From Candidatus Hadarchaeota archaeon (lineage in GTDB: Archaea > Hadarchaeota > Hadarchaeia > Hadarchaeales > JAGGTB01): 64,000 bases of DNA. Positions within the stretch are counted from its first letter, which is position 1, and each line of letters begins with the position of its first letter. The DNA is taken from contig CAYLJV010000001.1 of the NCBI GenBank assembly GCA_964384105.1, positions 224,001 through 288,000 of the forward strand, in the 5' to 3' direction. The notes beneath the pieces were generated by a model that saw only the letters and a program-made list of their open reading frames with translations, had not been told where the DNA came from and searched no databases. Shown here one piece after another: positions 5,465 through 63,980 of this stretch. Position numbers and translations under genes: made by a program.

Positions 5465-5737
5465 ATGGTAGAAGATATTGTAGAGAAGAAAAAAGTGGGA
5501 GAAATAACTCACTATTTCACAAATATTGGTGTTGGCGTGATAAAACTTAGCGACAAACTCCAGGTTGGAGATAGAATTTCTGTAGAAGGAGAAACAACTA
5601 ACTTTCAACAGGAAATCGAATCTATGCAGATAGAGCATGATGATGTAGAATCGGCAGATTCCGGTGAATCGGTTGGAATTAAAGTAAAAGATCGCGTTCG
5701 AGAAGGCGATGTGGTTTATAAGATTGAGAGTCAATAG
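5465..5737 (+). CDS. Small translation-factor-like beta-barrel protein (EF-Tu domain II / U32 C-terminal-like)
   Basis: 'VGEITHYF.NIGVGVI.L...L.VGD.I...G.TT.F.Q.IESMQIEH..V..A..G..VGIKV..RVREGD.VYK'. Confidence 0.8.
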   Translation: MVEDIVEKKKVGEITHYFTNIGVGVIKLSDKLQVGDRISVEGETTNFQQEIESMQIEHDDVESADSGESVGIKVKDRVREGDVVYKIESQ

Positions 5738-10165: not shown

Positions 10166-10436
10166 TTTTCACCTCTTATGTTCTGAGGGATAATTTCCTT
10201 CCAGAGTCTATCGGTAGAATCAGATTTGATGTGGCCCTTGGTAGTTTTGGAATTTTTTTACTTTTCTTTATGATTTCTTTTATTGAAACATTGCTAGGTA
10301 AAAGCTGTTTTATAAGGGGTTTAGTTAACAGTGTTATCTCCCGCTTGATTACCTATATTAATATGAAGTTTAATAACTAATGAGGGGGACTGAATGTTCA
10401 ATATTTCTATTTTTATCTAACAAAATGCGAAAGGGG

Positions 10437-10913
10437 ATGGTTAAAATTGTCGAATATTTAGATGAGACTGATAAAAAAATAGTCCAGTATGTGTGTAGGG
10501 GTACATATTCCTATTCTGAGCTCGCTGAGATCGTGGGGGTTAGTCGAAATACGATTTATCGAAGGCTTAGTAGACTGGAAGACAGTGGTGTGATTAAAAA
10601 GAGAGTAATGGCAATTCTTGACTTTGAAAAAATAGGTTTTTCTTCGATCATAGTTTGTTTGAAGGTAGGGCTAGGTGATTTGGAAAAAACGGTAAATTTT
10701 CTTAAAGGTTTAGAACAGGTTAAGTTTCTCTGGAAAACATATGGGGAGTATGAGGTCGTCGCGGTCCTTATGTGCGACAAGAGGAATGTTGGAACCTGCA
10801 TTAACAATTTGAAAGAGGCATTAGAGAAGCTGAAAGTGGAAGTGAATGAGTTTAATGCGGCACCGAGTATATCTTGGGAAAAGGTTGAATTAGCGCCTCA
10901 TAATGAATTGTAG
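10437..10913 (+). CDS. Lrp/AsnC family transcriptional regulator
   Basis: N-terminal HTH 'LDETDKKI...SYSELAE.VGVSR.TI.RRL..LE..GVIK' plus a RAM domain; divergent from the hydrogenase operon. Confidence 0.85.
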   Translation: MVKIVEYLDETDKKIVQYVCRGTYSYSELAEIVGVSRNTIYRRLSRLEDSGVIKKRVMAILDFEKIGFSSIIVCLKVGLGDLEKTVNFLKGLEQVKFLWKTYGEYEVVAVLMCDKRNVGTCINNLKEALEKLKVEVNEFNAAPSISWEKVELAPHNEL

Positions 10914-54615: not shown

Positions 54616-56586
54616 CTAGAAACCCAAAGGGTTTAAGTGTGCAAATGCAGTTCCGGCAATTATCGCAATTGCAATTGTGGAGGCACTTATAACTATAGCT
54701 TCCTTCCACCCTAACTCCCTCTTTAGAACTCCAATAGTTGCAATACAGGGGACGTAGATTGCTACTACTAAAGCGAACACGAATAATTGTAGGGGAGTCA
54801 TGAAGTTACCAATACTGGATGTTCCAGAAACTGCTATTAGCAGAACTAATGCGCCTTCTTTTCTTATTACCCCATAGAGAAGTGGGATAATTACGACTGC
54901 GGGTAATCCGAGTGCTCCGGTTGTAAGTGGAGAGAGTGGCTGGATTATAGAATCCATAATTCCAGAAACTTCGAGTATCCCTATGGAGAAACTACCAATG
55001 AGAAGTAGTGGAGTAGCGATGTAGATGAATTCTTTCATTCGGTTCCATGTTTTTGAGAGAACAGGTTTTGGTACCGGCTTTCGCAATGGTGACATTTCCA
55101 TTATCATACCGGTACTCTCTCCTGATAGGAATCTGTTTAGAATTAGACCCACTAGGAATATCAAACCGAGTATTACTCCATAGATTACCAGAGCGGGGTA
55201 TATTCCCGCGAAGACACCGACTGTTCCTAATATAACAGCTGTCCTGGCCGAGCAGGGAACCATCGTGATCAAAAATGATGAGATTAGGCGTTGTCTTCGT
55301 GTGGTTAAACTCCTTGTGGCCATTATGGCGGGAACGTTGCATCCGAATCCTCCCAGCATGGGCACTACTGCTCTTCCATGTAGTCCTATTCTATGCATTA
55401 AAGAGTCCATAACATAGGCCATTCGGGATAGATACCCTGAATCCTCTAATACGGCAAGCGCTAGGAAGAAAATTGTTATGTATGGAAACATTACGAGGAG
55501 TATTCCCTTTATACCAAGGTTCAGACCAATATCCAAGACTTCGATTACAGAGGGATTCGAGGAAATGTTCTGAAAAAGAGTAATTAGTTGAGGTTGAGCG
55601 TAGCTGTCCCACCCACTTTCTAAAATTCCTTCAATAAATCCTCCCCCATAAAAAAGTAGCATCAGCAACCCAAGAAAGACTGTTATAAGGATCGGGATTC
55701 CAGTTTTCATTTCTGTAGTCCATTTACTGATTTTCTCGGACCAAGATGGCTCGACTTTAACGTAACTAGAAGATTCTTCCGCGATCAGGCTGGCTATACC
55801 GTGTCTTTCTCTGGCTATTCTAAATGCAGCAGCTTCTCCATGATCTTCTTTTATTTTTTGGGCCAGTTTCTGCGCTTTTCCTAGTATTTTTTCAGCTTTT
55901 TTTTCTTTTTTTAGGAAATTTATGAGCTCCTCGTCTCCCTCTAGTAGTTTGATTGATAGAGTTCTTGGAGCGAGGTTATATGGAATCGAATCTATGTTTT
56001 CTTGAATTGAATCTGAAAGAGATTTTATTATTTTTTCTAGGTCATTACCAAATCTTATTTCACTTTTCGGTCTCGCCTTTTTCTTAGCTAAGTTTATCGC
56101 TTCTGCAAAGACTTTAGATACGTTTTTACCTTGGGTCGAGACGGTGGGTATTACGGGAATCCCTAAATTTTCCGATAATTTTTCGGGATCTATTTTTATT
56201 CCTTCGTTAAGTGCTACATCGTATTGGTTTAATGCGATCACTACGGGTATATCCAATTCAAGTAACTGGAGGGTCAAATATAGGTTTCTTTCAAGATTAG
56301 TCGCATTTACTATGTTTATAATCGCGTCTACTTTTCCCCCTATAATGACTCTTCTAGCAACTTTTTCATCTTCCGCTACGGCCCCGACCGAATATACCCC
56401 CGGTAAGTCTATTACTTTGACAGAGTGGTTCTCATACTTGGTTACTCCTTCTGCTATTTCCACGGTGGTTCCAGGATAGTTAGAGATGTTAACTCCTATT
56501 CCCGTAACCTGGTGAAAGAATGCGCTTTTACCAACGTTCGGATTACCCGCCAGACCGATAGCGATATCGATGTTTCCTTTTTCCAT
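54616..56586 (-). CDS. feoB: Ferrous iron transporter FeoB
   Basis: GNPNVGKS, NYPGTTV, DLPG, LEDSGY, GFGCNVP, PCSAR and YVPC motifs. Confidence 0.96.
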   Translation of the reverse strand: MEKGNIDIAIGLAGNPNVGKSAFFHQVTGIGVNISNYPGTTVEIAEGVTKYENHSVKVIDLPGVYSVGAVAEDEKVARRVIIGGKVDAIINIVNATNLERNLYLTLQLLELDIPVVIALNQYDVALNEGIKIDPEKLSENLGIPVIPTVSTQGKNVSKVFAEAINLAKKKARPKSEIRFGNDLEKIIKSLSDSIQENIDSIPYNLAPRTLSIKLLEGDEELINFLKKEKKAEKILGKAQKLAQKIKEDHGEAAAFRIARERHGIASLIAEESSSYVKVEPSWSEKISKWTTEMKTGIPILITVFLGLLMLLFYGGGFIEGILESGWDSYAQPQLITLFQNISSNPSVIEVLDIGLNLGIKGILLVMFPYITIFFLALAVLEDSGYLSRMAYVMDSLMHRIGLHGRAVVPMLGGFGCNVPAIMATRSLTTRRQRLISSFLITMVPCSARTAVILGTVGVFAGIYPALVIYGVILGLIFLVGLILNRFLSGESTGMIMEMSPLRKPVPKPVLSKTWNRMKEFIYIATPLLLIGSFSIGILEVSGIMDSIIQPLSPLTTGALGLPAVVIIPLLYGVIRKEGALVLLIAVSGTSSIGNFMTPLQLFVFALVVAIYVPCIATIGVLKRELGWKEAIVISASTIAIAIIAGTAFAHLNPLGF

Positions 56587-57235
56587 ATTTTTCAACCATG
56601 ATTTTTGAGGCGATTCCCCGGCTTAGGGCGAGTTTGTCTCCCCCCCTCTTAATCATCAATGCACTAAAAGAGGGATTATCAACTAGCTCTATTTCTGTAC
56701 CCGGTAGTATCCCTAGTGGGAGTAGTCTTTGGATATCTTCTTTTTCCTCGGGGATTGTTCGAACTTTGTATTTTTCCCCTTCTTCCCCTTCTGTCAGCTT
56801 TATTAGTTCTCCTCTATCCTCCTCTTCTGGTGTAGGTATTGGCTGTCCGTGAGGGCAGGTTCGTGGATTTTCTAAGACTCGCGATATTTCGTTTGCGGTT
56901 TCGTCTGTTATTGAATGTTCTAGTTTGCAGGCTTCTTCATGGATTGAAGGGAGGTCTCTACCTAATACGTCGCATAAAAGTCGCTCTGCTAAACGGTGCC
57001 TCCGAGTTACTCTCATTCCAGTCTCCTCACCTTTTTTTGTTAAGCTTGCGCCGGTGTAGCTCTTGTAATCTACGAGGTTCTTCCTGTCTAACTTCTTCAA
57101 CATGCCCACTACGCTGGGTTCTTTTATTTTTAGGTCCTTTGCGAGTTTGCCAACTCTTACTCTTTCTTTTCCCCCGCTTAGCCGATACAAGGATTCTAAA
57201 TATTCTTCTTCAGATTCAGAGAGATTTTTCGACAT
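56543..57235 (-). CDS. DtxR/MntR-family metal-dependent repressor with C-terminal FeoA domain
   Basis: 'LSESEEEYLESLY', 'RRHRLAE', 'EAC.LEH', 'CPHG.PIP' and a FeoA-like 'LGILPG...ALSRG.A.KI.V'. Confidence 0.93.
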   Translation of the reverse strand: MSKNLSESEEEYLESLYRLSGGKERVRVGKLAKDLKIKEPSVVGMLKKLDRKNLVDYKSYTGASLTKKGEETGMRVTRRHRLAERLLCDVLGRDLPSIHEEACKLEHSITDETANEISRVLENPRTCPHGQPIPTPEEEDRGELIKLTEGEEGEKYKVRTIPEEKEDIQRLLPLGILPGTEIELVDNPSFSALMIKRGGDKLALSRGIASKIMVEKYGKRKHRYRYRSGG

Positions 57236-57310: not shown

Positions 57311-57388
57311 TGGAGCCGGGGACCGGATTTGAACCGGTGTAAGCGGATCTGCAGTCCGCCGCCTCAAACCAGGCTCGGCCACCCCGGC
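57311..57388 (-). tRNA. tRNA-Cys(GCA), CCA encoded
   Basis: Reverse complement: GCCGGGG...GCGGA-CTGCAGA-TCCGC...GGTTCAAATCC...CCCGGC-T-CCA; G37 and U73. Confidence 0.95.
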
Positions 57389-57687
57389 TTGTCAGATCAG
57401 TTTAACAATTTCATAACGCTGTTATATAGTTGGTGGTTATTAATAATTATTGATACTTTTTGAAATTTTTATCTGGTTTTGTTGAGTTTATTAGAGAAAA
57501 ACTTTTAAATAAAATGTGAGTATTATTTGTATAACAGCGTTATATGAGGGCGACCAAGATGAAGAATAATCTAGGGGATCGTTTTTGTTGATGGCTACGG
57601 CATAATTCTTGTAGAGGATCCTCTCAATCTTTTTCTGGATACTTTTCTCAATTCTAAATTTACACATAATGAATGGGGTGTGCTTAA

Positions 57688-58655
57688 ATGGAAGCAATAT
57701 TGACAGGAATGTTTCTAGGCGTAATTTTTGGCTATGTATGCCAAAGAGGCCGGTTCTGCATGAATTCCGGATTTAGGGATATTTGATGACAAGGGATTTC
57801 AGGATTTTCAAAGCCTTTGTTCTGGCCGTTCTGTTTCAGCTTATTGTTGTAAATGCTCTAGCTGGTTTGGGGATTTTCCCAATTAGACAACTTCCTTTTT
57901 TGTGGGTAGGGAATATAGTTGGGGGATTGATTTTTGGTGTAGGAATGGTACTTGCAGCCGGCTGTGCTAGTGGAACGTGGTATCGTATGGGTGAAGGAAT
58001 GATGGGTAGTTTTGTTGCGGCTTTAGGATATATTTTAGCTGCTTTTTCGGCTAGAGGAGGGGCTTTATCTCCAATAGTACGGTCAGTTCATCAGTTTGGA
58101 ATTGATACTCCAGGATTACACACTTTGTTAGGGATAAATAAGTGGGTGATAATCGTAGTATTTGTGGTGGTTGCAGGATTCTGGCTTTTTAGAAATTTTG
58201 AGATCACATCGGGTGAGGGATGGAATTGGATAAAGACAGGTTTTGGAATCGGGATAGTCGGAGTTCTTGCTTGGTGGCTTAGCACTAGAACAGGTAGGAT
58301 TTACGGTTTAGGAATAACAGCTCCGTCGGCTTCTATAGGTGAATGGTTTACTACGAGTAACACTGCGTTGGTTAACTGGGGAACTTTTTTTGTAATCGCT
58401 ATACCTATTGGGGCTATGGTGGCTTCGTTCTTACATGGCGAATTTAAATTGCGGACCCCTCCTGCAAAAAGGGTACCTGTTCAGTTTGTTGGGGGATTGG
58501 CATTGGGTCTAGGTGCTACTCTCGCAGTTGGGTGCAATATTGGTGGAAGTGTAGCGGGGATACCCGTGTTAGCCGCCGGTAATATACTCGCAACAGTTTT
58601 CTTTATTTTGGGAAACTGGATGGCAGCTTATTTGCTATTTATGAGGAGGTGGTAA
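57688..58655 (+). pseudogene. YeeE/YedE (TsuA-like) sulfur-compound transporter with a 1-nt frameshift near 57783 (real or sequencing error)
   Basis: ATG at 57688 gives MEAILTG...QRGRFCMNSGFRDI then stop. The remainder (LAAGCASG, GCNIG) is in another frame, and one extra T at 'GAT ATTTG ATG' restores it. Confidence 0.85.
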
Positions 58656-58656
58656 A

Positions 58657-58896
58657 TTGACTAAGATAGATAGAGAAATAGATCTCAGAGGTGAAGTATG
58701 TCCCTATACTTTTGTTAAATCGAAACTGGCACTTGAAGAAATGGAAGTGGGCGAAGTTTTGAAAGTAATGATAGATTATCCAATGGCAGCAGAAAATATT
58801 CCTAGAAGTATGGAAAATGAAGGACAAGAAGTAGTGAATGTAGAAAAGGTCGGAAATTCTGAATGGGAGATAATATTGAAGAAGAAAAAAGATTAA
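58657..58896 (+). CDS. tusA: TusA/SirA family sulfur carrier (YeeD-like)
   Basis: 'IDLRGEVCPYTFVKSKLALEEM..GEVL.V..DYP.A..NIP'. Confidence 0.92.
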   Translation: MTKIDREIDLRGEVCPYTFVKSKLALEEMEVGEVLKVMIDYPMAAENIPRSMENEGQEVVNVEKVGNSEWEIILKKKKD

Positions 58897-58935
58897 TTTT
58901 TACTTATATTATTTTTGATTTCTTTGAGATATTTA

Positions 58936-59952
58936 CTACCTAGTTTGAGATTTAATGTCTTTTACTATCCCGATAAACTCAGTGAAAATACTGTTCATCA
59001 TTTCTTTAAATTCCTCTCTATCTGTTGCGATTTTTTCTAGGCCCTCATCAAATTCTTTTATCATTCCTATATCTAGCCAATTTTCTCTTTTGTTTGCAAA
59101 TCCATTTCCAGTGATAATTGGTTTTGCCGTTTCCATTGCTTTTTGTGCTTGTGATTCATCTCTGAATTTTAGTGGAAGATAAACAGTCATTTTTTTTACT
59201 GATCCGCTCTCGTCTTGGTCTAAGTATAGTCTTAGGGCTTTCCCTCTGTAGTAACCATGGAAGTGATCTGTTCCCTTGTCAAAATTCATTTCTTTTAGTG
59301 GTTCCACGAGATGGCTAGGTAGATTATCCATTATACATCCACAGAGGGCATCAGTTACATTGGGCTCGGATAATTGTTCTACTAGTTTAGTGAAAATATC
59401 GTATGGCATTCCCATAGCTAGTTCGTCGTCTTTGAATCCTCCAATGGAGCGGGCCCCTCCACAGAGTAAAGTCAGATTTGGTTTATCTTCCATGTATGGA
59501 ATAGCGGTTGCTTCACCGGCTATAGCAGACCCCTCGCTAGTGCAGCTTGATTCAATTCTTTCCTTTGACATTTGGTGATAGACCTGAAAGACTTTCATCA
59601 TTGTTTCGGGATCAGAAATTATTACGACTACATCAGGTGTTCCTTTTTCAAGTTCTAATGGTCTTACTGTTACAGCTTTTGTTTTTGAAGGTTTTATCCG
59701 AGGATATATTTCTGTATACTTTGGATCGGCAAATCCTAAGATGATTGTTGCAGTAAAATTGCTGAGATTTTTTTCCTTTAAAGTAAATGATTCTCTTAGT
59801 TTTGCCGCATTTCTTACGAAGTAACAGAAACGGTTTGAAGTATCTGGTGATGGACTATTGGTGTCTTGGATGTGAACGGTAATTGCCACAGGGCTCAACG
59901 GCATTTTAAAGAATTTTCTGAAACTATTTGAGAGCTCTTCATTATTTTCCAT
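58936..59952 (-). CDS. DUF169-like protein with an extra C-terminal domain
   Basis: 'PVAI', 'RFC.FV..A', 'PDVVVI...PE..M', 'P.....PN.TLLC.GAR..G...DDE..MG.P', followed by about 135 unassigned residues starting LCGC. Confidence 0.7.
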   Translation of the reverse strand: MENNEELSNSFRKFFKMPLSPVAITVHIQDTNSPSPDTSNRFCYFVRNAAKLRESFTLKEKNLSNFTATIILGFADPKYTEIYPRIKPSKTKAVTVRPLELEKGTPDVVVIISDPETMMKVFQVYHQMSKERIESSCTSEGSAIAGEATAIPYMEDKPNLTLLCGGARSIGGFKDDELAMGMPYDIFTKLVEQLSEPNVTDALCGCIMDNLPSHLVEPLKEMNFDKGTDHFHGYYRGKALRLYLDQDESGSVKKMTVYLPLKFRDESQAQKAMETAKPIITGNGFANKRENWLDIGMIKEFDEGLEKIATDREEFKEMMNSIFTEFIGIVKDIKSQTR

Positions 59953-59953
59953 C

Positions 59954-61150
59954 CTAATTACTCACCGGAATCTCATATTTTTCAGCAATTTCGTAAAAAG
60001 TATCTATCACATATTCAAGTTCATCTCTAGAAAGTCCATAGGTGTTAATCTTTATCATTTTTGTAACGCCAGGTTGTATACCGCTTATTTTTTTCTCTTT
60101 CAACTCGTCATACAAGAAAAATCCTCTTCTCTTATGTTCCTTCGAAATTTGGTGGAATGAAGGTGTTTCTAGTGACATAAGTGTATGTTTTCTTGGTCTT
60201 TGTCCGATTTGCCGAAAATCTCTGATTTTTTCTATCTGTTTAACAAACCATCGAGCATTTTCTATGTGTTTGTCCCATTCTTGAACACGTTTGTAGACAT
60301 GAGGGAAACTAGCCATTAAGGTAGCTATTGGGGCTCCAAATACAGGAGGGCAACCAAATAGACTGGGTATTTTCTTTGTGAAACCTCTTCCCGACCACGA
60401 TCCTCTGATTTTTGAGCCACTAAATGCTTCATCTGAGTACTCATAGCTTGTCATTAGCATTCCAATGGGACCTGAAGCTGCCCACGATTTGTGTCCACTA
60501 AACGTTATAAAATCGGCATTCCACTTTTTCCCGTCAATAGGCATTATTCCGCCGGTATAGGCTGCATTTACGATAAAGGGTATATCATATTCTCTAGCTA
60601 TCGAGCCAATTTTTTCCGGTTCGATGAGGTTTCCATACCTGTAGTCTACGTGAGTAAGAAATAGTGCAGCGGGCTTCTCATTTTTTTCTTCTATTGTCTC
60701 TTCTATTCTTTCTCTATAAGCCTCCGTCTCGAGTTCGAAATCAGGATATCCGTTGTGGGGTACTTCCTTGACTTCAAGCCCGAGATTTTCTGCTGCGAGA
60801 TAAGTTGTGTAATGTGCTAGAGAGTCAATTACGATAGTGTCACCCTCTTCAGCTACAGCTTTTAGAGCGATCCACTGTGCGTGTCTACATCCGGCTGTAA
60901 ACTCCGCATCATCCATGTTAACAAATCTCGCTAAATCATTTGAAAAGTCCGAAATGGGTGGTTTATCTACTAGGTCCACTCTCCCTTCTAAACAGAAGTC
61001 ACATGTACTGTATCCATCTCCAAAGGATTGTAGCGTTTCTTTTGATTCTGGAGGGAGCATTCCACCTCGTTGAATAGGATTTAGATTGATCCAATCCTCA
61101 TCGATTCTTCTTTTGATATTTTTGTATTTGTCTAAGTCTATACTTTCCAT
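59954..61150 (-). CDS. pscS: O-phosphoseryl-tRNA:Cys-tRNA synthase (SepCysS)
   Basis: 'NLNPIQRGG', GYSTCDFC, AHYTT, PLP-lysine motif SGHKSW, third Cys in LFGC, and 'RGFFLY.ELK'. Confidence 0.93.
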   Translation of the reverse strand: MESIDLDKYKNIKRRIDEDWINLNPIQRGGMLPPESKETLQSFGDGYSTCDFCLEGRVDLVDKPPISDFSNDLARFVNMDDAEFTAGCRHAQWIALKAVAEEGDTIVIDSLAHYTTYLAAENLGLEVKEVPHNGYPDFELETEAYRERIEETIEEKNEKPAALFLTHVDYRYGNLIEPEKIGSIAREYDIPFIVNAAYTGGIMPIDGKKWNADFITFSGHKSWAASGPIGMLMTSYEYSDEAFSGSKIRGSWSGRGFTKKIPSLFGCPPVFGAPIATLMASFPHVYKRVQEWDKHIENARWFVKQIEKIRDFRQIGQRPRKHTLMSLETPSFHQISKEHKRRGFFLYDELKEKKISGIQPGVTKMIKINTYGLSRDELEYVIDTFYEIAEKYEIPVSN

Positions 61151-61260
61151 TTTTTCACCCGTTTAATACAGCTTGATATAACAGCCTTATATTTATTAAA
61201 GACTTTGGCCTATACATAGTTGTTAAGAGATTTGGTTAATAATATTTTAAGAGGGAGATA

Positions 61261-62367
61261 ATGGTCGAGGTTATCGTGGATTTTCCCAACAAGAATGGGG
61301 CTGGAAGAAAAAAGGTAAATGTTATTTTTGAAGGGGATACTCTATCTGACCTTTTTGAAAAAATCACAGAAGGATACGGAAGATTGGTTGAGGGATTGTT
61401 TGATTTTGATCGGAAGATTCCCTTGGACCATGTAAACATTTTTATAAATAACGAGATGGCGGAGAAAAAAGAATTTGCCAGTAGTGAGGTTAGCTCTGGC
61501 TCTGAGGTCAAAATATTGCCATTAATAGCAGGAGGGTCAAAGAATAGTAAGCTTTTTGGATTTGATGAGGATCAAATCAAGAGATATAGTCGGCAGATAG
61601 TTCTTCCTGAGGTTGGTGGAAAAGGTCAGAGGAAACTTTTGGACTCAAATGTTTTGATAGTGGGAGCAGGTGGATTAGGTTCACCGGCTGCGATATATTT
61701 GGCTGCTGCGGGTGTAGGACGTATAGGAATAGTGGATGACGATGTTGTAGAGTTAAGCAATCTTCAAAGACAGATATTATATGGAACGGAAGACTTGAAA
61801 GATAGAAAAGTAAAAGTTGCAGAGAAGAGAATTCACGATATCAACCCTGAAGTTGAGGTAGTGACATATGATAAGTGTTTAACTCCCGAAAATGTCTTTG
61901 ATATCTTTGGAGAAAATTGGGATATCATTTTAGATGGTACTGATAATTTTCCTGCGAAGTTTTTGATAAATGATGCGTGCGTGATGGAAGGTATTCCTTT
62001 TTCTCATGGAGCTATTCTAAGATTTACAGGTATGGTGACTACAATACTGCCTAAGGACGGTCCTTGTTACAGATGTTTCACTCCAACGGCTCCTCCTCCT
62101 GGTTTGGTGCCTAGTTGTCAGGAAGCAGGAGTTCTGGGTGTAATGCCGGGAATAATAGGGTCTATTCAGTCAGCTGAGGTTCTAAAATACATTTTGGGTG
62201 TGGGAGGTCTTTTAAAAGGAAGGATTGTCTTTTTGGACGCTCAAGAAATGGAGTTTGAAGAATTTAAGCATAGTAGGAGGGATGAATGCCCTATATGTGG
62301 CAAAGAACCGAAAATTACTGATCTTGATCAAGTTGATTATGGGGATGTGTGTCAGGTTCGGTTTTGA
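61261..62367 (+). CDS. Ubiquitin-like (MoaD/SAMP) domain fused to a ThiF/MoeB/UbaA E1-like adenylyltransferase
   Basis: N-terminal beta-grasp ending 'VKILPLIAGG', then RYSRQ, GAGGLG, SNLQRQ, CYRC, SCQEAG and CPIC. Confidence 0.9.
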   Translation: MVEVIVDFPNKNGAGRKKVNVIFEGDTLSDLFEKITEGYGRLVEGLFDFDRKIPLDHVNIFINNEMAEKKEFASSEVSSGSEVKILPLIAGGSKNSKLFGFDEDQIKRYSRQIVLPEVGGKGQRKLLDSNVLIVGAGGLGSPAAIYLAAAGVGRIGIVDDDVVELSNLQRQILYGTEDLKDRKVKVAEKRIHDINPEVEVVTYDKCLTPENVFDIFGENWDIILDGTDNFPAKFLINDACVMEGIPFSHGAILRFTGMVTTILPKDGPCYRCFTPTAPPPGLVPSCQEAGVLGVMPGIIGSIQSAEVLKYILGVGGLLKGRIVFLDAQEMEFEEFKHSRRDECPICGKEPKITDLDQVDYGDVCQVRF

Positions 62368-62389
62368 AATAAAAATTTTGAGGTAAAAA

Positions 62390-63184
62390 ATGGGAACTAA
62401 AAAGTTTGGATCACTTGGCGAAAAAGATGTAACTAGGGCAATCTCCAATTCATTCAGAAAAACTTTTGAAGAATATACTGAGAGTGATGTGATAATTGTT
62501 GGCGGTGGACCTAGCGGTTTAATGACGGGGAAGGAACTAGCAGAAAATGGAGTAAAAGTGTTGCTCGTTGAGGCTAATAATTATCTCGGAGGCGGTTTCT
62601 GGCTTGGAGGTTATTTGATGAATAAGGTTACAGTAAGAGAACCCGCTCAAGAGGTATTGGATGACCTGGAGGTGCCTTACGAGAAGGCGAGTAGAAATAT
62701 TTATGTTTCTGATGGCCCACATGCTTGTTCTAAACTCATAGGAGCGGCATGCGATGCAGGTATAGAAATTCTGAATATGACTCGTTTTGAGGACGTTGTT
62801 CTTCGTGAAGGGAACCGAGTCGGGGGAGCTGTAATAAATTGGTCCCCAATAAAATCCTTGCCTAGGGAAATTACGTGTGTTGACCCTGTAGGAATGGAGT
62901 CGAAATTAGTCGTAGATGCGACGGGTCATGATGCGGAGGTTGCAAAGAAAATGGAGGAAAGAGGTTTCTTGGAAACTGTTGGGTATGGAGGGATGTGGGT
63001 TGAAAAATCAGAGGATTTAATTGTAGAACATACAGGGGTAGTTCATCCAGGTCTTGTTGCCACAGGGATGGCAGTGTCTACGACTTATGGACTTCCTAGA
63101 ATGGGACCTACATTTGGTGCTATGTTGCTTTCTGGCAAGAGGGCGGCGAATGTTGTTCAAGAGGAACTTAAAGAATTTAGATAA
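62390..63184 (+). CDS. thi4: Thiazole synthase Thi4 (Cys-type)
   Basis: GGGPSG, GGG.W.GG, ITCVDP, DATGH and [14 protein letters not shown] motifs. Confidence 0.94.
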
Positions 63185-63980
63185 AGATCGGATTAGAATC
63201 CACTTTTATGATGACCCCTCTACTAGACATCTCGATGTTGAAGAATTGTCTAGGTACGTCACTGAGAAGACTTCTTTTAGGAAGCCAGATGTTAGAAGAC
63301 CTCTTGTAGAAGGAAAAAAGATTTCAAAAAATGATTTGGCTCGGAAATTCGCAAAATCGAGAGTAAGGAATCTTGGGAAAACAAAGGAGGATTTTGAACC
63401 ACTTTATGGTGAAATTAGATTCGAGGAGAACCTTATCGAAAATCCAGGTAAGAATATCTCAGGTATTTTGTATGATGGATTTTTGCTGACTAAAATTTTT
63501 CGCGACCTTATTTCTGCGAATGAGCGAAATTATTTTCACATTCATATAATCTTTACAAACCGACTTTTTGGTACGTGGGATGATAATGATCGTAGATATC
63601 ATGCAAGGGTTTCTGTTTATGGATTTCCTACCATTATCTCTACTTCCGGCATTGTTGAGGCTCCCGCGAAACCAAAGGAATTTTACAGAAAAAAAAGGGA
63701 GTTAGCGAGTTTAGGGAATACTAGTGGGGCTATAGATCGAGCTAAAAAGAATTTTGAGGGGAGATTTGTTGAGTATAACGATAATCGATTAATGGAGATT
63801 ATGAAAGGTTATGCTATGCAAGCTGTCTTTTATCATTTAACTTCCAATCCATTTTGCGAAAAGAAATACTGTAGATTATACAATGCACACTGGCAGGAGG
63901 AAGTGCTTAGAGCACAATTAGAATCCCCTGAATTTTGTGAAAGTCATAAAAAAATGATTGAGAATTTGAAAAGTTACTGA
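63150..63980 (+). CDS. Putative metallopeptidase-like protein (DUF6775-like / archaemetzincin-related); start uncertain
   Basis: 'LYDG', '[15 protein letters not shown]', '[14 protein letters not shown]' and 'FC....[11 protein letters not shown]...FC..H'. Confidence 0.7.

Follow-up and report, generated by a model that had tools for sequence, protein, structure and literature searches.

A conserved SepCysS–DUF169 gene pair within a sulfur-supply island of a Hadarchaeota archaeon

In a 64,000-nucleotide stretch of DNA from a Candidatus Hadarchaeota archaeon (assembly GCA_964384105.1, contig CAYLJV010000001.1, positions 224,001 to 288,000; hereafter, the window), the gene for SepCysS, an enzyme of tRNA-dependent cysteine synthesis, is positioned next to a gene for a two-domain DUF169 protein, within a co-regulated sulfur-supply island that also encodes a TusA-family sulfur carrier and a fusion of a ubiquitin-like protein (Ubl) with an E1 enzyme. 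One SepCysS clade almost always has DUF169 as its genomic partner, and the lineages of E1 and TusA track those of SepCysS. The best overall explanation, to which we assign a probability of about 0.5, is that the DUF169 protein acts as an accessory subunit of SepCysS, that TusA and Ubl supply sulfur, and that the genes are under shared control.

To our knowledge, the Hadarchaeota are known only from metagenomes, and DUF169 is a widespread family with neither a known function nor a solved fold; a partnership with SepCysS would give this family its first anchored role. The in vivo sulfur donor of SepCysS is described as open (PMC2330236), a question that dates from the discovery of the pathway and that is now directly testable in vitro, with the two-domain DUF169 protein, TusA and two E1 lineages as concrete, clonable candidates for the sulfur source. 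The shared operator described below offers an initial entry point into how genes respond to sulfur in Hadarchaeota.

The SepCysS–DUF169 gene pair and its island

The genome carrying the window is designated G000 (1.62 Mb in 12 contigs, among them C1, C2 and C3; 90.2% complete; Hadarchaeota-like), surveyed loci are numbered with the prefix L, and other genomes are numbered from G001. Genes were called from the open reading frame (ORF) listing and with ARAGORN, Pfam and NCBIfam. All eight loci reported in an earlier sequence-only reading of the window (tRNA-Cys, YeeE, TusA, DUF169, SepCysS, Ubl–E1, Cys-type Thi4 and a putative metallopeptidase) were located where that reading had placed them, the YeeE gene being corrected to a split gene.

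SepCysS (59954–61150, minus strand, 398 residues) matches TIGR02539 with 470.9 bits (cut-off 365.25) and the structure 3wkr with 386.9 bits; its closest relatives are found in metagenome-assembled genomes of Hadarchaeota (60–62% identity). The lysine that binds pyridoxal 5′-phosphate (PLP), Lys221, and Cys50, Cys53 and Cys267 are invariant in 12 sequences aligned to 3wkr, and the window copy contains an 8-residue insertion relative to M. jannaschii SepCysS. The DUF169 gene (58936–59952, minus strand, 338 residues) is separated from that of SepCysS by 1 nt, a spacing from which the two are judged to be translationally coupled.

As judged by gene spacing, on which the operon structure rests, SepCysS and DUF169 form one minus-strand transcription unit, YeeE and TusA form a plus-strand unit, and Ubl–E1, Thi4 and DUF6775 form another; the SepCysS and Ubl–E1 genes diverge across 110 nt. 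A single contig of run X1 covers 57384–62299, contigs of run X2 bridge the TusA/DUF169, DUF169/SepCysS and SepCysS/Ubl–E1 junctions, and the sole branch point in the assembly graph is the 78-nt tRNA-Cys repeat. An assembly chimera was rejected for 57384–62299 because the X1 contig spans that stretch. The G+C content of the island genes (0.34–0.44) brackets the window mean of 0.40, and all island ORFs other than YeeE are intact.

Conservation of the linkage across archaeal SepCysS loci

A total of 80 SepCysS loci, with flanks of up to 10 kb, were surveyed by tblastn with the window proteins. DUF169 was detected at 54 of these loci, E1 at 28, TusA at 18, Thi4 at 12, DUF6775 at 3 and YeeE at none. 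After the addition of 20 loci of relatives, a quick IQ-TREE analysis of 90 distinct SepCysS sequences gave three clades, termed here DUF169-linked (61 rows), homocysteine-operon (21 rows) and SepCysSn-linked (8 rows). The DUF169-linked clade, with an SH-like approximate likelihood-ratio test (SH-aLRT) value of 96, includes the window copy and members from Hydrothermarchaeota, Hadarchaeota, Archaeoglobaceae, Methanosarcinales, Methanoperedens and Methanocellales; the second SepCysS of G000 falls in the SepCysSn-linked clade, as does the sole copy detected in relatives from its genus.

Where 1 kb or more of sequence was available downstream, DUF169 was adjacent to SepCysS in 44 of 53 DUF169-linked, 2 of 20 homocysteine-operon and 0 of 7 SepCysSn-linked rows. 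Nine rows of the first clade break this pattern: four from Argoarchaeum/Ethanoperedens, and L084, L109, L115, L121 and L048. In the reverse test, 121 genomes of the Methanoperedens class (Methanosarcinia) were scanned for DUF169: SepCysS was directly upstream of all 15 full-length two-domain DUF169 genes detected, with a convergent TusA gene downstream in 10 of these 15 loci, and none of 15 loci encoding a single-domain DUF169 contained SepCysS within 1.5 kb. The neighbourhood survey that the sequence-only reading called for thus supports a link of DUF169 with this SepCysS clade in both counts, and a dedicated partnership of the two proteins is well supported by genomics.

The DUF169-linked enzyme was the sole SepCysS found in four of five genomes checked (Methanoperedens G041, Hydrothermarchaeota G043, Archaeoglobus G044 and Hadarchaeota G045), which argues that it is a working Sep-tRNA enzyme and not a side paralogue, and on this pattern the clade is taken to comprise genuine housekeeping SepCysS. 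The idea of a clade of non-tRNA enzymes was rejected on the same grounds.

A small thioredoxin-like gene (Thioredoxin_3) was detected by tblastn directly upstream of SepCysS in 7 of 15 Methanosarcinaceae loci (L186–L196), and a Thioredoxin_3-like gene directly follows DUF169 in Hydrothermarchaeota (L083, L086).

Features of the two-domain DUF169 protein

The PF02596 match of the window protein (101.6 bits; cut-off 27) spans just residues 82–192 of 338, whereas in relatives of the same subfamily it covers the whole domain; the additional C-terminal domain corresponds to no Pfam family. Four cysteines (C43, C164, C204 and C206) are invariant among 21 two-domain DUF169 sequences, and a fifth, common elsewhere, is replaced by alanine in the subclade of the window protein. 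The AlphaFold model has a mean predicted local distance difference test (pLDDT) score of 89.2, falling lower around the C-G-C motif of the linker between the two domains.

In structural comparisons, the C-terminal domain (209–338) matched the YbjN/AmyR and type III secretion (T3S) chaperone folds with Z scores of 9.1–8.7: 5fr7_A (Z 9.1, root-mean-square deviation (rmsd) 3.1 over 116 residues), 4h5b_B (9.0), 1xkp_B (8.7) and 3cxj_A (8.7), with an overall rmsd of 3.1–3.5 over 110–119 residues. This likeness between a model and known folds points, modestly but consistently, to a protein-binding module. The N-terminal domain, modelled alone (pLDDT 91.3), matched no chain at Z≥5 among 48,161 representative chains, the best match being 2dvk_A (Z 4.8) accompanied by weak thiolase-like rows. 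A DUF169 profile search of PDB sequences gave nothing meaningful, a Foldseek search of the PDB with the DUF169 model gave no match at E 1e-3 or better, and an Atlas search with DUF169 returned DUF169 clusters alone (score 0.89).

In Table 1 of PMC5322559, a STRING analysis places a DUF169 protein among the genes linked to a selenium-type YedE from Slackia, which again hints that the family may deal with sulfur or selenium trafficking.

The Ubl–E1, TusA and JAB carrier genes

The Ubl–E1 gene (61261–62367, plus strand) encodes a β-grasp (ThiS/MoaD-like) domain (PF02597, 34.3 bits) that ends in Gly-Gly at residues 91–92; a short linker connects it to an E1 resembling MoeB/UbaA (PF00899, 276 bits). 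The fusion scores below the equivalog cut-offs for UbaA (337.3 versus 450 bits) and MoeB (345.6 versus 449 bits). The Gly-Gly and a linker of 6–12 residues are kept in all nine fused proteins aligned. As a peptide-bonded glycine cannot be adenylated, and genes for a JAB/desampylase-like peptidase lie alongside (in G000, L044, L045 and L110; that of G000 lies just past the window end at C1:288006–288425, as a continuation of the island), cleavage of Ubl from the fusion is implied.

The 79-residue TusA-family protein (58657–58896, plus strand; PF01206, 79.2 bits) contains a Cys-Pro motif, shows 56–64% identity to E1-adjacent TusA proteins in L043–L053, and scores below the YeeD/TsuB equivalog cut-off (44.9 versus 147.5 bits). 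An E1 tree of 36 rows comprises two clades (SH-aLRT 98 each), both of which include Ubl fusions. In the clade of the window E1, TusA is adjacent in 12 of 18 rows, and this clade occurs in the same four archaeal lineages as the DUF169-type SepCysS. The second E1 of G000 belongs to the other clade, 11 of whose 18 rows have SepCysS next to E1; in the genus relatives of G000, the order around this second type is SepCysSn-SepCysS-E1-tRNA-Cys.

An E1 gene was adjacent to SepCysS or within 5 kb in 13 of 61 DUF169-linked, 11 of 21 homocysteine-operon and 3 of 8 SepCysSn-linked rows, and TusA was near in 13 of 61, 2 of 21 and 0 of 8 rows, respectively. TusA and E1 of one clade accompany the SepCysS–DUF169 pair repeatedly, in four archaeal lineages. 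The genes are colinear as E1-TusA-SepCysS-DUF169-thioredoxin, in a cluster without ThrC, in the Hydrothermarchaeota loci L086 and L090.

A palindrome shared by the island and other sulfur genes

An exact ATAAC-N3-GTTAT palindrome occurs twice between tRNA-Cys and YeeE: at 57413–57425, 25 nt from the 5′ end of tRNA-Cys, and at 57531–57543, 145 nt upstream of the N-terminal YeeE ORF. A copy with one mismatch (61178–61190) is located in the SepCysS|Ubl–E1 promoter region, with the SepCysS start 28 nt away and the Ubl–E1 start 71 nt away. G000 contains nine exact sites, eight of them intergenic, and six of these eight are located within 400 nt upstream of sulfur genes. In addition to the two island sites, exact sites were identified at the divergent MetY|NifS promoter and before tRNA-Thr-ED, the homocysteine operon and the second E1–Ubl pair, as well as before two genes unrelated to SepCysS, encoding an FTR1 iron permease and an isochorismatase. 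Copies with one mismatch directly precede a ThiS-like ORF, MoaE and MsrAB, and also occur at unrelated genes.

Of 20 palindromes of the same composition, this one ranks first in G000, with 8 intergenic hits versus a median of 1. In 35 non-redundant Hadarchaeota loci (536 kb), 13 sites were identified versus at most 3 for any control palindrome, and 50 non-Hadarchaeota loci (729 kb) contained none. By our own reading, 11 of the 13 sites lie in promoters of SepCysS|TusA, DUF169|SepCysS, Thi4, ThiI-like|JAB, SepCysSn|tRNA-Thr-ED or an aminotransferase-like gene; the same-genus loci L146–L148 contain no exact site. The palindrome, a new finding of this analysis, is Hadarchaeota-specific in this sample and, as a sequence pattern, ties the island to other sulfur-assimilation genes in a manner that supports co-regulation. 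Co-regulation is by itself no proof of a sulfur relay.

In L150 (relative G013; 5537–5585), palindromes are located 10 and 46 nt from tRNA-Cys, and the second tRNA-Cys copy of G000 has no site; the placement suggests that the island tRNA-Cys gene may be under sulfur control. As a lead only, a gene for a 149-residue winged-helix protein (G000:C1:291525–291974; L178) is a candidate for the regulator; homologues are encoded immediately after DUF169 in Archaeoglobaceae (L100:2169–2447; L102:12164–12463) and beside sites in L150:5023–5331. A further one-mismatch palindrome (window 10325–10337) is located 43 nt upstream of an AsnC/Lrp-type helix-turn-helix gene (177 residues, 10380–10913), which is divergent from a gene for a 4Fe-4S protein.

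Cysteine synthesis in G000

SepRS is encoded in G000 (536.6 bits), together with SepCysS and a suitable tRNA-Cys (G37, U73). No CysRS was detected over the cut-off in G000 (best 35.4 versus 340 bits; control genomes were positive in 13 of 14 cases), and in this 90%-complete genome CysK/M was not found and no CysE scored over the cut-off. Because SepRS is present and these alternatives were not detected, G000 appears to depend on the Sep-tRNA route for cysteine; on SepRS, CysRS and cysK, the genome checks called for in the sequence-only reading support its interpretation. Its view that the organism is probably non-methanogenic also agrees with the failure to find McrA in the 90%-complete genome. 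Three cysteine-desulfurase-like genes do occur, one SufS-like and two NifS/IscS-like with NifU, all below equivalog cut-offs; their presence does not support the earlier reading. G000 also encodes a COG1900/NIL-ferredoxin/COG2122 homocysteine operon (C2:46369–48959), a second E1 with a free SAMP1/MoaD-type Ubl, MoaE and ThiI-like proteins.

The genome contains two SepCysS genes. The second copy (C2:197678–198862) is preceded by an overlapping 58-residue ORF of the SepCysSn kind, and a DtxR-like gene and a metal ABC transporter are located between it and its tRNA-Cys. SepRS lies in a cluster (G000:C3:150381–155552; L130) in which it is preceded by genes for a 210-residue PRK14562-family protein, a MarR/DUF7343 protein and a Taw1-like radical-SAM enzyme and followed by a metallo-β-lactamase–rhodanese fusion (412 residues), an arrangement that agrees with the cluster type described by Mukai et al. 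(2022, PMC8762117).

A proposed route of sulfur to SepCysS

We infer the following contacts and sulfur transfers from the genes present, their conservation and co-phylogeny, the distribution of the motif, and the conserved residues and predicted folds. The DUF169 protein would be a dedicated accessory subunit that docks, through its chaperone-like C-terminal domain, on SepCysS or the Sep-tRNA complex, and its four cysteines, as a persulfide relay or an Fe-S site, would pass sulfur to the three catalytic cysteines of SepCysS. Sulfane sulfur would be carried by TusA. The JAB peptidase would release Ubl from the fusion at Gly-Gly, the freed Ubl would be adenylated by E1, and the TusA persulfide, in place of the rhodanese domain of MoeZ/Uba4, would convert it to a thiocarboxylate. 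Either TusA-SSH or Ubl-COSH could then supply DUF169/SepCysS and probably also the neighbouring Cys-type Thi4. A single regulator acting at ATAAC-N3-GTTAT would switch the island together with the homocysteine, MetY/NifS-NifU, second E1–Ubl and tRNA-Thr-ED genes. YeeE would be a lineage-specific, split add-on that may import thiosulfate and that stands outside the conserved system.

A stricter version, in which Ubl freed by JAB, charged via the TusA persulfide and presented by DUF169 would be the physiological donor of SepCysS, with the pathway as a whole and one tRNA-Cys gene under a single sulfur-sensing regulator, is considered rather unlikely. For the route suggested in the sequence-only reading, from imported sulfur through TusA or Ubl to SepCysS, the neighbourhood survey supports the links of SepCysS with DUF169, E1 and TusA and does not support those with YeeE and tRNA-Cys.

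Alternative explanations

Several observations weigh against a DUF169-assisted relay. Sulfide alone suffices for SepCysS in vitro (PMC2330236). Methanoperedens loci contain SepCysS-DUF169 without E1 or TusA within 10 kb. The loci are phylogenetically non-independent, and 30 of the 61 rows of the DUF169-linked clade are of Methanoperedens type. General sulfur needs could be served by the desulfurase-like enzymes and the second E1 and free Ubl of G000. The SepCysS promoter site has one mismatch, and in the window alone the 6 sites with at most one mismatch compare with a shuffle mean of 2.39, a number reached in 4 of 100 shuffles. The window SepCysS has a long terminal branch (0.52), and in the same-genus genomes G001–G006 only the other SepCysS type was found, with no window-type copy or island. 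YeeE import is the weakest part of the proposal, since the link is unique to G000 and the gene is split. In close relatives, the Ubl–E1/TusA/JAB module forms an operon with a threonine-synthase-like PLP enzyme: a ThrC-like gene (thrC model, 287 bits) directly precedes Ubl–E1-TusA in L044, L049, L108, L114 and L198, and because this operon resembles the MetM/MetO/MoeZ/Mec homocysteine system, SepCysS may be a mere neighbour.

These points lead to the main rival, a sulfur regulon without direct hand-off, in which the genes would be co-regulated by sulfur supply, SepCysS would take free sulfide, Ubl–E1/TusA/JAB would be a general or remnant thiocarboxylate system, and YeeE-TusA would be an ordinary, damaged thiosulfate uptake pair. 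The carrier module could then serve MetM/MetO-like homocysteine synthesis, as in the relatives, or Thi4, molybdopterin or tRNA thiolation; MetO/MoeZ/Mec/MetM is experimentally supported according to Table 2 of PMC13759103, MoaE, ThiI-like genes and a second Ubl are available in G000, and the FTR1 and isochorismatase genes also bear the operator. Yet G000 retains Ubl–E1, TusA and JAB, and no ThrC/MetM-like client was found in the 90%-complete genome apart from one weak 69-residue tblastn hit; therefore, another acceptor is needed. The colinear arrangement without ThrC in L086 and L090 and the two separate E1 clades that each track SepCysS clades also speak against this explanation, which leaves the strict DUF169-SepCysS coupling unexplained. 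We regard it as possible, though not probable. 

In another alternative, DUF169 would be an adaptor that replaces SepCysE/SepCysSn in lineages whose SepCysS lacks it and that, through its chaperone-like domain, tethers SepCysS to SepRS or tRNA or stabilises SepCysS, its cysteines holding a structural metal. The YbjN/T3S-chaperone-like fold of a protein-binding module fits such a role, as do the occasional location of DUF169 beside SepRS (Mukai et al., 2022, PMC8762117) and the distribution of SepCysSn-like ORFs, detected in all 8 SepCysSn-linked rows and in none of the 61 DUF169-linked rows, although the tblastn search with the 58-residue G000 ORF is insensitive. Redox or sulfur chemistry is the better fit for four invariant cysteines, including C-G-C in a low-confidence linker, and for the thioredoxin-like and TusA genes often encoded nearby, and a purely adaptor role is judged quite unlikely; adaptor and sulfur-donor roles are not exclusive. 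A highly improbable explanation is that the island is a redundant or decaying, laterally acquired copy, with the SepCysSn-SepCysS copy on contig C2 as the housekeeping route. The long branch, the split YeeE and the situation in G001–G006 are compatible with this, and a DNA-level search of the genus for the island recovered only tRNA-Cys and short, weak pieces. However, every ORF other than YeeE is intact, the catalytic and invariant residues are conserved, operator sites are present, the G+C content of the genes brackets the window mean, and the stop/start overlap in YeeE is compatible with coupled translation.

Relationship to known systems

Compared with the transsulfursome of class I methanogens (3wkr, 5x6b), the window system has the same enzyme family, with the PLP lysine and three cysteines, SepRS, and a tRNA-Cys with G37 and U73. 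No SepCysE or SepCysSn was detected beside the window copy, which instead has the coupled DUF169 and E1/TusA neighbours; the second SepCysS copy of G000 does have a SepCysSn-like ORF. Relative to the homocysteine-operon type, in which the methanogen-type homocysteine genes (COG1900 HcyBio, NIL-ferredoxin, COG2122) form one operon with E1 and SepCysS in other Hadarchaeota, DUF169 and TusA are used; in G000, the homocysteine genes are located on a separate contig (C2) and carry the same operator as the island.

Thiocarboxylate-dependent amino-acid synthesis is carried out by CysO/CysM/MoeZ/Mec+ in Mycobacterium. A comparable thiocarboxylate-dependent system, MetO/MetM/MoeZ/Mec, is listed for Streptomyces (PMC13759103, Table 2). 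As in these systems, the island combines genes for a Gly-Gly Ubl, an E1, a sulfurtransferase partner and a JAB/JAMM hydrolase, and relatives add a ThrC-like PLP enzyme. Unlike in these systems, the Ubl is fused to E1, TusA stands in place of the rhodanese domain, G000 yielded no ThrC/CysM-like client, and the neighbouring PLP enzyme has a tRNA-bound substrate. In the rather unlikely stricter version given above, the island would be a tRNA-level counterpart of CysO/CysM/Mec+, and might operate via a Ubl-acylated Cys-tRNA resolved by JAB.

Double SepCysS copies in some archaea and the co-occurrence of homocysteine genes with SepCysS were reported by Mukai et al. (2017, PMC5424206); G000 shares with the published descriptions its two SepCysS copies and DUF169 beside SepRS. 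The claim of an undescribed route is therefore only partly true, as SepCysS neighbourhoods have been treated in both studies. The main texts of PMC5424206 and PMC8762117 name no DUF169, TusA or E1 as a SepCysS partner and no regulatory motif, although supplementary figures may show more. In a literature search, no paper was found that treats SepCysS and TusA together, and SepCysS and DUF169 were found together only in PMC8762117, with the same reservation about supplementary figures.

YeeE and tRNA-Cys

The YeeE gene is interrupted. A 32-residue ORF (57688–57786, plus strand) encodes the N-terminal helix and first conserved cysteine of YeeE/TsuA; it matches NF052577 (positions 2–30, E 2.5e-8) and no Pfam family. 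The main ORF (57786–58655, listed from TTG 57783; plus strand, 290 residues) is in a different frame, its ATG overlapping the stop of the first. This main ORF matches PF04143 with 234.6 bits (cut-off 27) and positions 32–330 of the TsuA equivalog NF052577 with 226.9 bits (cut-off 400), its alignment to PDB 6leo (S. thermophila) begins at residue 33, and it carries the second and third conserved cysteine motifs (equivalents of C91 and C293). The three conserved cysteines C22, C91 and C293 are all essential in E. coli YeeE, and C22A of S. thermophila YeeE still complemented (Tanaka et al., 2020, PMC7449682). In the window all three are encoded, on two pieces and in no single intact polypeptide; because the N-terminus is located in a separate ORF, YeeE is either a coupled two-piece transporter or damaged. 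Contigs of X2 and X4 end at 57784 and 57791, near the split (57688–57788), which might reflect strain variation.

As in the YeeE/YeeD (TsuA/TsuB) pair (6leo, 8j4c; PMC7449682, PMC11073785), the gene for a TusA-family protein comes directly after that for a YeeE-family membrane protein. In contrast to that pair, the window gene is split after codon 32, both proteins score below the TsuA and TsuB equivalog cut-offs, and the window TusA is orthologous to the E1-linked TusA proteins of relatives and not obviously to YeeD. The linkage of YeeE to SepCysS in the sequence-only reading did not hold up, as it recurs at none of the 80 surveyed loci. No comparable YeeE was found in 40 relatives; in three genomes of the same genus, split halves lie beside a rhodanese gene.

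The tRNA-Cys (GCA) gene (57311–57388, minus strand) was detected by ARAGORN and has G37, U73 and an encoded CCA. The two tRNA-Cys genes of G000 are identical (78/78), and because each is located 2.4–2.6 kb from one of the two SepCysS genes in a 1.6-Mb genome, their clustering is beyond chance. Within the DUF169-linked clade, the proximity of tRNA-Cys to SepCysS is unique to the window: tRNA-Cys is near SepCysS in 1 of 61 DUF169-linked rows (the window itself) and 2 of 21 homocysteine-operon rows, and it is typical of the clade of the other paralogue (6 of 8 rows).

Thi4, DUF6775 and further neighbouring genes

In the Thi4 thiazole synthase of the window (62390–63184, plus strand; TIGR00292, 240 bits), the cysteine before V-D-P aligns with the active-site cysteine of plant THI1 (1rp0), and the position is occupied by His or Met in the catalytic enzymes 6hk1, 4y4m and 7rk0. 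By this alignment to solved structures and a pattern scan, and under the definition of Joshi (2021, PMC8454699), the label of Cys-type Thi4 in the sequence-only reading is correct. A non-Cys assignment, to which a T-G-H-D motif and the NCBIfam name pointed, was rejected, the deciding residue before V-D-P being Cys. A second Thi4, of the His type, is encoded elsewhere in G000.

Downstream, the DUF6775/DUF7001 putative metallopeptidase gene (63150–63980, plus strand; PF20565, 345.9 bits versus a cut-off of 27) has an uncertain start: its ORF is open from 63054, overlapping the end of Thi4, and the PF20565 match begins at residue 47. The same pairing of a Cys-type Thi4 with DUF6775 is seen in L045, L106, L116 and L150. 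In anaerobic Hadarchaeota with an additional, catalytic Thi4 of the His type, DUF6775 always comes after the Cys-type (suicide-type) Thi4, and the putative peptidase might dispose of or service spent Thi4. For unassigned ORFs of 137, 325 and 58 residues in relatives, no family was found.

Past the JAB gene, the order is a PadR-family gene, a heavy-metal ATPase, the 149-residue winged-helix protein and a standalone tRNA-Thr-ED, beyond which lie an enzyme of the O-acetylhomoserine/O-acetylserine sulfhydrylase family (TIGR01326, 607.6 bits) and NifS-NifU. The standalone tRNA-Thr-ED (PF08915, 164 bits; G000:C1:291955–292380; L169) is located 6.8 kb from SepCysS, downstream of the MetY-like gene, and a second paralogue is present at C1:568219–568632. 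On the other side, directly beside the island, FeoB and a DtxR/MntR-type repressor with a C-terminal FeoA domain are encoded (window 54616–57235).

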